From an uncultured delta proteobacterium (GTDB lineage Bacteria; Myxococcota_A; Polyangia; Haliangiales; Haliangiaceae), in NCBI GenBank assembly GCA_963848295.1, contig CAWKDB010000011.1, positions 384,001 to 448,000 on the forward strand: 64,000 bases of DNA, given 5' to 3'. The position numbers and the translations under genes are program-made. The first letter of the stretch is position 1; the number at the start of each line of letters is the position of its first letter. The notes under the pieces are model-generated. The model was not told the origin of the DNA. It saw only the letters and a program-made list of their open reading frames with translations, and did not search any database. Positions 57,801 to 58,378 of the stretch are shown here, one piece after another.

Positions 57801-57986
57801 CCGATTCGCCGGGGCCGTCTCGCCCGTCGCGCCGCACTCGCGCCGGCGCCGTGACGAGCGCGGGCACAAATCTCCGCACGCGTCGGTCGATCCAACTCTG
57901 CGGCGGTCGTTCGCACGCGTCGGTGGCCTCGGCGCTCGGCGCGGCGCTGGCGCGAAGCGGCGCAGGGCGACGGCCCCGGCGATCGG
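57801..57986 (-). ncRNA. Candidate structured leader/ncRNA (or ssDNA hairpin), copy 1
   Basis: Long imperfect hairpin; pairing is shared with copy 2 through compensatory changes. Confidence 0.6.
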
Positions 57987-58007
57987 AAGCCGCGAGGGCC
58001 GAGAGGT

Positions 58008-58159
58008 GGCGACGGCGACGGCATCGGCTTCGGCGTCGGCGGCGGCAGCGGCGTCGGCGGCGGCAGCGGCGGCGGCAGCGGCGTCGGCGGCGGCAGCGGC
58101 AGCGGCTCCGGCTCCGGCTCCGGCTCCGGCTCCGGCTCCGGCTCCGGCTCCGGCTCCGG
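58008..58159. repeat. Mixed GGNNNC hexamer array ending in (GGCTCC)n
   Basis: Read directly; separates the two hairpin leaders. Confidence 0.95.
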
Positions 58160-58181
58160 AACTCGACGCTCACTCGCTCGC

Positions 58182-58378
58182 GCCGATGAGCGGAACGTCT
58201 CTCTCGCCCTGCGCCGCTTCGCGCGGGTCCCGCGCCGAGCGCCGAGTGCGCCGGCGTCTGCGATCGACCGCCGCGGAGTTGATCGGCCGGCGATTGCGGT
58301 GGTCAGCGCCCGCGCTCGTCACGGGACCCGCGCGAGTGCGGCGCGACGGGCGAGAGAGAGACGTTCCTACCCATCGGC
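58182..58378 (+). ncRNA. Candidate structured leader/ncRNA (or ssDNA hairpin), copy 2
   Basis: GGAACGTCTCTCTCGCCC pairs with GGGCGAGAGAGAGACGTTCC; CGCGCGGGTCCCG pairs with CGGGACCCGCGCG. Confidence 0.6.

Follow-up and report, generated by a model that had tools for sequence, protein, structure and literature searches.

Introduction

Intervening sequences (IVSs) of 23S ribosomal RNA (rRNA), such as the helix-45 IVS of Coxiella burnetii with its S23p protein and those of Leptospira cited alongside it, bear open reading frames (ORFs) of the PF05635 family, and RNase III excises the IVSs at their terminal stem (PMC4990558). The present work concerns two long hairpins that lie outside rRNA, each directly upstream of a PF05635 gene, in a 64,000-nucleotide (nt) stretch of DNA from an uncultured delta proteobacterium (GenBank assembly GCA_963848295.1, contig CAWKDB010000011.1, positions 384,001 to 448,000; hereafter the window, with positions counted from its first letter). 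A second point of reference is the early messenger RNA (mRNA) of phage T7, in which the RNase III signals of the R1.1 type are intercistronic hairpins with an asymmetric internal loop. Upon cleavage, the T7 hairpin stays on the upstream RNA and the downstream mRNA is freed.

The hairpin of the window is a real, structurally conserved, lineage-specific cis element outside Rfam, fixed just upstream of small cassette genes, and is not a free-standing non-coding RNA gene. A family of such bulged hairpins, approximately 170–200 nt in length, exists in Kofleriaceae, and the element is one part of a small-gene cassette that appears to be undescribed. For its mechanism, we infer, with a probability of roughly 45%, that the hairpin acts in cis as the leader stem of a cassette that resembles an IVS and lies outside rRNA, with a predicted RNase III-type processing site or translation-control site. 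A literature search, mostly outside subscription journals, yielded no paper on hairpins that precede PF05635 genes outside rRNA; the 23S_rRNA_IVP/four-helix-bundle family is still called functionally uncharacterised in a 2024 preprint (bioRxiv 10.1101/2024.02.27.582315).

Results

Fold of the two hairpins in the window

Hairpin A (57801–57986, minus strand) and hairpin B (58192–58367, plus strand) each form a single long bulged stem-loop. The 3' base of the stem lies approximately 30 nt before the ATG of gene A (57450–57770, minus strand) and 32 nt before the ATG of gene B (58400–58723, plus strand), respectively. The two genes encode four-helix-bundle proteins of 106 and 107 amino acids, both with matches to the profiles PF05635 (23S_rRNA_IVP) and TIGR02436, and are divergent paralogues with 71% identity. 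The minimum free energies as RNA are −138.6 kcal/mol for hairpin A and −138.7 kcal/mol for hairpin B, with z-scores of −7.84 and −8.73, and 0 of 200 dinucleotide shuffles equalled either value. Comparison with shuffled controls had been named in the earlier note as a check that could count against the structure, and both hairpins fold far better than these controls. With DNA parameters, hairpin B reaches −80.2 kcal/mol (z −7.66).

The architecture that the earlier note had read from the two copies is borne out by the folds and by the alignment of the units. The outer stems of A and B differ in sequence and still pair in both copies. Inside them lies a GCCC/GGGC stem with an extra GA on the 3' arm, present in both copies, followed by the GCGCCGC/GCGGCGC stem. 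The next stem carries the compensatory swaps (CCAGCGCCG/CGGCGCCGG versus CGGGTCCCG/CGGGACCCG) and leads to the CGAGCGC/GCGCTCG stem. In the apical domain, the motif CCGRCGnnTGCG occurs twice, flanking CCGCCGCRGAGTTG. The bulges common to A and B are situated on the 3' arm, as had been noted, and the lower bulges of hairpin B are all on this arm. The invariant block of the 5' arm, CCGAGCGC, is located at 57932–57939 (minus strand) in hairpin A and at 58235–58242 (plus strand) in hairpin B, whereas that of the 3' arm, GCGCTCG with an adjoining unpaired TCAC, is located at 57851–57861 (minus strand) and 58312–58322 (plus strand).

A search of 56500–59800 on both strands with the Rfam 15 covariance models, at E <= 10, gave no match of meaningful score on either hairpin. 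The low-level matches in this region are chance hits to microRNA and small-RNA models, far below their gathering scores and mostly within the repeat arrays or inside gene B. Hence the remark that the hairpin was not recognised as a known family still holds.

Covariation and distribution across relatives

The covariance model used for all model searches, R1, was built from the 23 full copies in the host genome. Within the GTDB genus of the host, 21 of 36 other genomes contain a match, a tally that takes in one unpublished genome (G010); the 24 genomes from other families of the order and class contain none. In a separate draw from the family, under strict filters, matches were obtained in 4 of 5 genomes of the genus, in 2 of 3 genomes of a second genus and in 0 of 32 others. 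With the filters off, a third genus (G098) gave matches of 40–48 bits directly upstream of PF05635 genes, again arranged as divergent pairs.

An alignment was made from 49 sense-strand model matches, comprising 47 distinct sequences from the host and related genomes. The proportion of paired cells is 92.1%, a figure biased toward structure because the alignment was fitted to the covariance model, against 75.2% in shuffles, of which 0 of 500 reach 92.1%. Sliding the partners by 1–3 columns lowers the paired cells to 30–46%. Covariation in a larger alignment, another check that the earlier note had named, is present over the 47 sequences, with double changes in 40 of 52 pairs, and all 12 outer-stem pairs turn over completely. 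Furthermore, each of the 47 sequences, folded independently with 15 shuffles per sequence, gives a long hairpin every time, with a median z of −6.2 and with 42 of the 47 below −4.

Conservation is distributed unevenly along the hairpin. The helix CGAGCGC/GCGCTCG and the adjoining unpaired TCAC are invariant or nearly so across the 47 sequences, and the two direct repeats of the apical domain keep their pattern from genome to genome. Variation is greatest in the outermost stem, and the outer 12 pairs of the consensus contain no conserved base. The proposal that selection acts on the folded structure is supported, since pairing survives the complete turnover of the outer stem across genomes and, among the copies of the host genome, unpaired positions vary approximately three times as often as paired ones. 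A short variant exists at L080 (G031:C35), where two tandem forms of approximately 115 nt comprise only the inner part and the invariant core. They lie in the same orientation, 394 nt apart, between a kinase-like ORF and another ORF, and no PF05635 gene follows.

Copies in the host genome

A DNA search of the host assembly (7.8 Mb, 11 contigs, 85% complete) revealed 24 hairpin loci, including 10 B-type copies, 10 A-type copies, 3 diverged full copies and 1 truncated copy. These copies and the 47-sequence alignment lift the caution, stated earlier, that only two copies had been compared. The ten B-type hairpins were found at 92–100% identity, and the paired A-type hairpins, in inverted orientation, are 80–84% identical to B. 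All ten pairs sit between different neighbouring genes, and the gap between the two hairpin matches of a pair ranges from 179 to 471 nt. Among the ten A and ten B copies, paired columns have 0.18 and 0.11 variant states per position, and unpaired columns 0.52 and 0.32. The host genome contains 31 PF05635 matches, 29 of them above the cut-off, and all 23 full-length model matches of the hairpin precede PF05635 genes.

Two B-type hairpins, B9 and B10 (L009, L010), carry an A-like apical segment, which suggests that the inverted partners of a pair exchange sequence. The truncated copy (G000:C2:903949-904346) consists of half a hairpin (model positions approximately 19–108), a B-type gene reduced to its 3' part and a short array. 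A second PF05635 subfamily is present without the long hairpin (G000:C2:271083, C2:797188, C10:3467581, C10:3175866 and C8:9516). Upstream of these genes are other hexamer arrays (CTTGAC/CTGAAC; CGAGCC) and a small CAACTC..GAGTTG stem approximately 25 nt before the ATG, and CAGAGTTG, noted at these loci, recurs in the apical loop of hairpin A. A crude palindrome scan of the host genome, made with exact 8- and 10-mer seeds that cannot rank bulged hairpins, pointed to approximately 46 other palindromic loci (for example, G000:C11:473794, C9:70563, C2:1252759 and C2:961089). A look-up of sequencing runs returned one soil-metagenome DNA run with 28% of the sampled words, together with two runs from the same study, and no RNA run.

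Genes attached to the hairpin

The surroundings were examined for 32 model matches, 3 in the host genome and 29 in others, of which 31 were assessable (28 outside the host). A PF05635 gene follows 18 of the 32 (15 outside the host; one frameshifted), in two subfamilies that are approximately 35% identical. A PF13366/TIGR04256 GxxExxY gene, the product of which has a PD-(D/E)XK nuclease fold, follows 2 of the 32, and 1 match is cut off by the end of its contig. In the reverse direction, 15 of 20 loci found via protein B alone have the hairpin just upstream, and in G087, from the family draw, 6 of 8 matches lie directly before PF05635 genes. PADLOC 2.0 matched 0 families for proteins A and B, one PF13366 cargo and one IVP of the second subfamily.

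The hairpin is always in the sense of the gene that follows, and the model match ends 13–80 nt before the start codon (13–21 nt in nine examined loci). The shortest spacings leave room for a ribosome-binding site only and hence no room for a promoter, so the hairpin is probably part of the transcript. In the case of gene B, a Shine-Dalgarno-like GGAGGA, read from the sequence, is located at 58389–58394 (plus strand), outside the stem. Within 57100–59400, the scans gave 0 sigma-70-like promoters and 0 terminator-like sites with a U-tract; a look by eye for extracytoplasmic-function (ECF)-like or sigma-54-like boxes was unconvincing, and its result was not used. No T run follows either stem, and an intrinsic (Rho-independent) terminator was therefore rejected.

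The modules occur singly, as divergent pairs and, at L075, as one convergent pair. The upstream gene is co-oriented with the module in approximately 10 loci, opposite in 2 and ambiguous in 3–4, according to a crude codon-usage caller that was trained on contig C2 and that called a spurious ORF across one of the arrays of the window (58619–59194, minus strand). Seven of eight scanned upstream genes belong to ordinary Pfam families (SDR, SnoaL, MFS, YbeY, M23 peptidase, sugar transferase and a ferredoxin-type protein). Some hairpins with no recognised gene behind them (L072, L076 and L081) are situated 27–82 nt behind the stop of a co-oriented ordinary gene.

In the class as a whole, PF05635 is multicopy in 32 of 61 genomes. 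The genes are often inverted pairs of different paralogues (G097, G098, G053 and the host; loci L154–L158), convergent and 45 nt apart in G097, and divergent and approximately 0.8–1 kb apart in G098, G053 and the host; such a paired layout of two paralogues suggests a two-subunit function. Among 27 assessable PF05635 loci of the class, 8 have a hairpin of at least 24 pairs ending no more than 10 nt from the predicted start. In G097, G049 and G114, the order is an array of hexamers or heptamers, a near-perfect, unrelated hairpin and, directly after it, the AUG of the PF05635 gene; the Shine-Dalgarno sequence lies within the 3' arm of the hairpin. At L146 (G097:C2), the array upstream of the PF05635 gene consists of a (TGGCAC)n block and then a (TGTCAC)n block; in our reading of the fold, these blocks would pair at 5 of 6 bases as RNA, via a central G·U, which corresponds to a C·A mismatch on the other strand.

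Hexamer arrays and neighbouring genes

Period-6 microsatellites of the form (CGGNNN)n flank and separate both modules, in one orientation throughout. Array 1, (CGGCAT)n with variants (57166–57403, plus strand), starts 9 nt past the stop of an AAT/TPR gene and is cassette context, separate from the hairpin itself. Array 2, (CGGCNN)n (58013–58156, plus strand), lies between hairpins A and B, that is, within the gap between the two matches of each pair. Array 3, (CGGATC CGGCAG)n with variants (58787–59270, plus strand), ends approximately 9 nt before the stop of a FecR-domain gene. The unit and its arrays thus occupy the gap between two convergent ordinary genes, the AAT/TPR gene ending at 57157 and the FecR-domain gene at 59279. 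Judged from the copies in the same genome, the conserved core of the unit comprises approximately 57404–58012 and 58161 to approximately 58773.

Array units and lengths differ among all ten copies. Period 6 is the commonest class of tandem repeat in the host genome, with 67 arrays, compared with 14 of period 3; the remaining periods in the range 4–9 have no more than 3 arrays each. PF05635 matches are no more than 1 kb away from 23 of the 67 period-6 arrays, and 24 of the 35 perfect-phase CGGCNN arrays are within 700 nt of a hairpin. In relatives, an array is found within 900 nt in 16 of 36 modules, one locus being counted twice. Elsewhere in the window, at 61480–61680 (minus strand as folded), a hairpin without a gene has arms of mirror-image hexamers, (ACAGGC)n against (GCCTGT)n, with a loop of approximately 95 nt (−112.6 kcal/mol, z −7.7), and has a minus-strand ORF on either side.

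Orthologues of the FecR-domain neighbour are present in 52 of 60 genomes of the genus, at no more than 57% identity. In the loci of 11 relatives, the AAT/TPR gene does not occur within 1.5 kb, and synteny is absent. As regards the signs of a miniature inverted-repeat transposable element (MITE) or a foldback element, 11 of 31 assessable copies are without a gene, the termini are the least conserved part and no duplication was found; the relatives are too distant for an empty-site comparison because their flanking orthologues are no more than 57% identical and not syntenic.

Discussion

Candidate role as a leader stem and the DNA-level alternative

As a leader stem, the hairpin would be transcribed as the leader RNA of the cassette gene. 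Transcription would start at a promoter beside the hexamer array or run on from the ordinary, co-oriented gene that is usually found upstream. The near-perfect duplex of approximately 70 base pairs would then be a substrate of the host RNase III, the gene of which is present (G000:C2:87785-88174). A cut in the stem would separate the cassette mRNA from the RNA upstream of it, as in rRNA IVS stems and the phage T7 intercistronic signals, and the invariant internal loop may set the cleavage site or bind a protein. The placement relative to the start codon and the ribosome-binding site, together with the co-orientation with upstream genes, favours RNA. Furthermore, the apical domain appears to behave more like RNA, judging from its base pairs: 28 of the 47 sequences have U·G at one apical pair, and the single changes among the A copies comprise 7 G·U against 4 A·C. 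The Shine-Dalgarno sequence within the 3' arm of the hairpins of G097, G049 and G114 has meaning only in RNA and therefore counts for the same reading.

Several observations weigh against a function in RNA alone. The main stem comprises 1781 Watson–Crick cells with only 16 G·U against 21 A·C, and the G·U excess usual in RNA helices is absent. As RNA, the antisense strand has the more stable fold in 37 of the 47 sequences (mean advantage 6.6 kcal/mol), a result that its p-value overstates because the 47 sequences are related; of the window copies, B favours the sense fold and A the antisense fold. The Shine-Dalgarno sequence stays outside the stem in this hairpin family, and 11 of the 31 assessable copies have no recognised gene behind them. 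The count of co-oriented upstream genes depends on a home-made gene caller and on small numbers. In the divergent pairs of the host genome, read-through from a neighbour would meet the antisense hairpin of the other module first, so that a promoter near array 2 must be assumed. The earlier note had left open a structured RNA or a folded single-stranded DNA, and both still stand after the G·U count and the folding of the two strands.

The next most probable explanation, which we regard as unlikely and yet as the strongest competitor, is a DNA-level element: a single-stranded fold or a cruciform recognised by a recombinase, a nuclease or a replication-linked process that moves, copies or rearranges the cassette. 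In this explanation, the complementarity of the arms would be kept by DNA copying or repair and not by selection on RNA. A main stem of Watson–Crick pairs in which G·U is no commoner than A·C, and a sense strand without a folding advantage, fit such an element, as do the full turnover of the outer stem, with many GC-to-CG exchanges lacking a wobble intermediate, and the stability under DNA parameters. However, the fixed orientation to the downstream gene, with no flipped copies seen, is set against it, and the tight spacing to the ribosome-binding site would be unneeded for a DNA site. The element is multicopy at unrelated sites, including the ten pairs between different neighbours in the host genome, and copies without a gene exist, both of which count in its favour; yet the unit contains no transposase, integrase or relaxase, its only ORFs being PF05635 or PF13366, and neither a target-site duplication nor a conserved terminal motif was found. 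One cargo family has the PD-(D/E)XK nuclease fold, and bulges are confined to one arm, as in integron attC sites. The flanking microsatellites, differing per copy, point to local DNA instability, whereas the orientation of array 2 is the same in all ten copies, which indicates that the inverted hairpins do not drive inversion. Finally, in other families, the comparable hairpins enclose the Shine-Dalgarno sequence, which again speaks for the leader stem and against a DNA site.

Protein-binding and other alternatives

A protein-binding leader or operator is less probable still. In this case, the cassette product or a host factor would bind the invariant helix, the TCAC loop and the two CCGNCGNNNGCG repeats, so that translation or transcription would be under feedback control and no cleavage would be involved. 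The contrast between a core that is invariant in sequence and flanking stems that need only pair is what a binding site might produce, and the conserved pattern of the two apical direct repeats agrees with it. The protein bAvd, a relative of the PF05635 family, binds nucleic acid and a reverse transcriptase, and the genes are often inverted pairs of two paralogues in several families, both of which would suit such a role. However, the same hairpin stands before two unrelated families, PF05635 and PF13366, which argues against a cargo-specific operator, and copies without a gene persist.

More speculatively, and at slightly longer odds than an operator, the hairpin, arrays and small gene together could constitute an undescribed autonomous selfish cassette, IVS-like and outside rRNA. 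The hairpin would be the handle for the cassette's own four-helix-bundle (Avd-like) or PD-(D/E)XK protein, which would spread the cassette and make the hypervariable 6-nt microsatellites that dominate the tandem repeats of the host genome, perhaps through templated or reiterative synthesis with priming at the hairpin.

Least probable of all is a passive palindromic repeat without a cassette-specific role, whether the remains of a MITE-like or foldback element or a factor-independent terminator or insulator. In its favour, hairpins that lack a U-tract may end transcription in GC-rich bacteria, the copies at L072, L076 and L081 lie close behind stops of co-oriented genes and the window copy fills a convergent intergenic gap, but the invariant asymmetric loop, the fixed orientation and the start-codon spacing persist across three genera, the stems are more conserved than the loops, a full terminator 13–20 nt before a start codon would silence the gene behind it, and the scan of 57100–59400 contained no U-tract terminator.

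Significance

The hairpin is a conserved nucleic-acid element that travels with the PF05635 family outside rRNA and also accompanies the unrelated GxxExxY family. Should the stem prove to be an RNase III site, as a leader stem of this kind is predicted to be, it would show how such cassettes ride host transcripts and would tie rRNA IVSs to a wider class of elements. The cassettes also mark a concentration of the period-6 microsatellites of the host genome and so connect an orphan gene family with an unexplained type of repeat. The hairpin family would also be a candidate new entry for RNA-family databases.

Comparison with known systems

Integron attC sites, retrons and the ToxIN system each share a part of this layout. 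Like an attC site, the hairpin is an imperfect palindrome that neighbours small cassette ORFs and owes the polarity of its fold to extra bases on one arm. However, attC sites are approximately 60–140 nt in length, against 170–200 nt here, and the modules form inverted pairs and not a one-way array; identity with attC fails because the 47-sequence consensus has no conserved core and inverse-core motifs at its outer ends. Similar to a retron msr/msd, a hairpin of approximately 160–200 nt lies upstream of a gene in a myxobacterium; a retron was rejected, the downstream ORFs being only PF05635 or PF13366, with no reverse transcriptase. The type III toxin-antitoxin system ToxIN consists of a repeat array with conserved units of approximately 36 nt, a hairpin and a gene, and the order of parts, tandem repeats, a strong hairpin and a small gene, is the same here. 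The differences are that the repeats here are 6 nt long and differ between copies, that arrays also occur after the gene, and that the proteins are PF05635 or PF13366 members with no PADLOC match.

Compared with the rRNA IVSs, the cassette has the same PF05635 ORF and a long, very stable stem attached to it, and it likewise looks selfish, with a sporadic distribution and many copies. It is unlike them in that the hairpin lies between protein-coding genes, is self-contained upstream of the ORF instead of enclosing it, and is accompanied by hexamer microsatellites that flank it in direct orientation. An inverted-repeat search of 57100–59400 returned only the homology between the A and B arms and the hairpins themselves, and no upstream flank pairs with the downstream flank of a gene. 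A position of the hairpin within rRNA was rejected, as the window copy and the ten copies have ordinary, differing neighbours; the host assembly is without a 23S gene, and the 23S genes of G026 and G005 are 3018–3019 nt in length against a model of 2925 positions, which leaves them without an insert of approximately 190 nt.

In the case of the T7 signals, the hairpin is likewise situated between an upstream message and the next ORF, with asymmetric internal loops on one arm. The hairpin described here is 3–4 times longer, chromosomal, multicopy and tied to two families of small genes, and its cleavage is a prediction. In its probable mode of action, the hairpin is thus closest to the stems of rRNA IVSs or to the intercistronic RNase III signals of T7, and it is a member of neither group.

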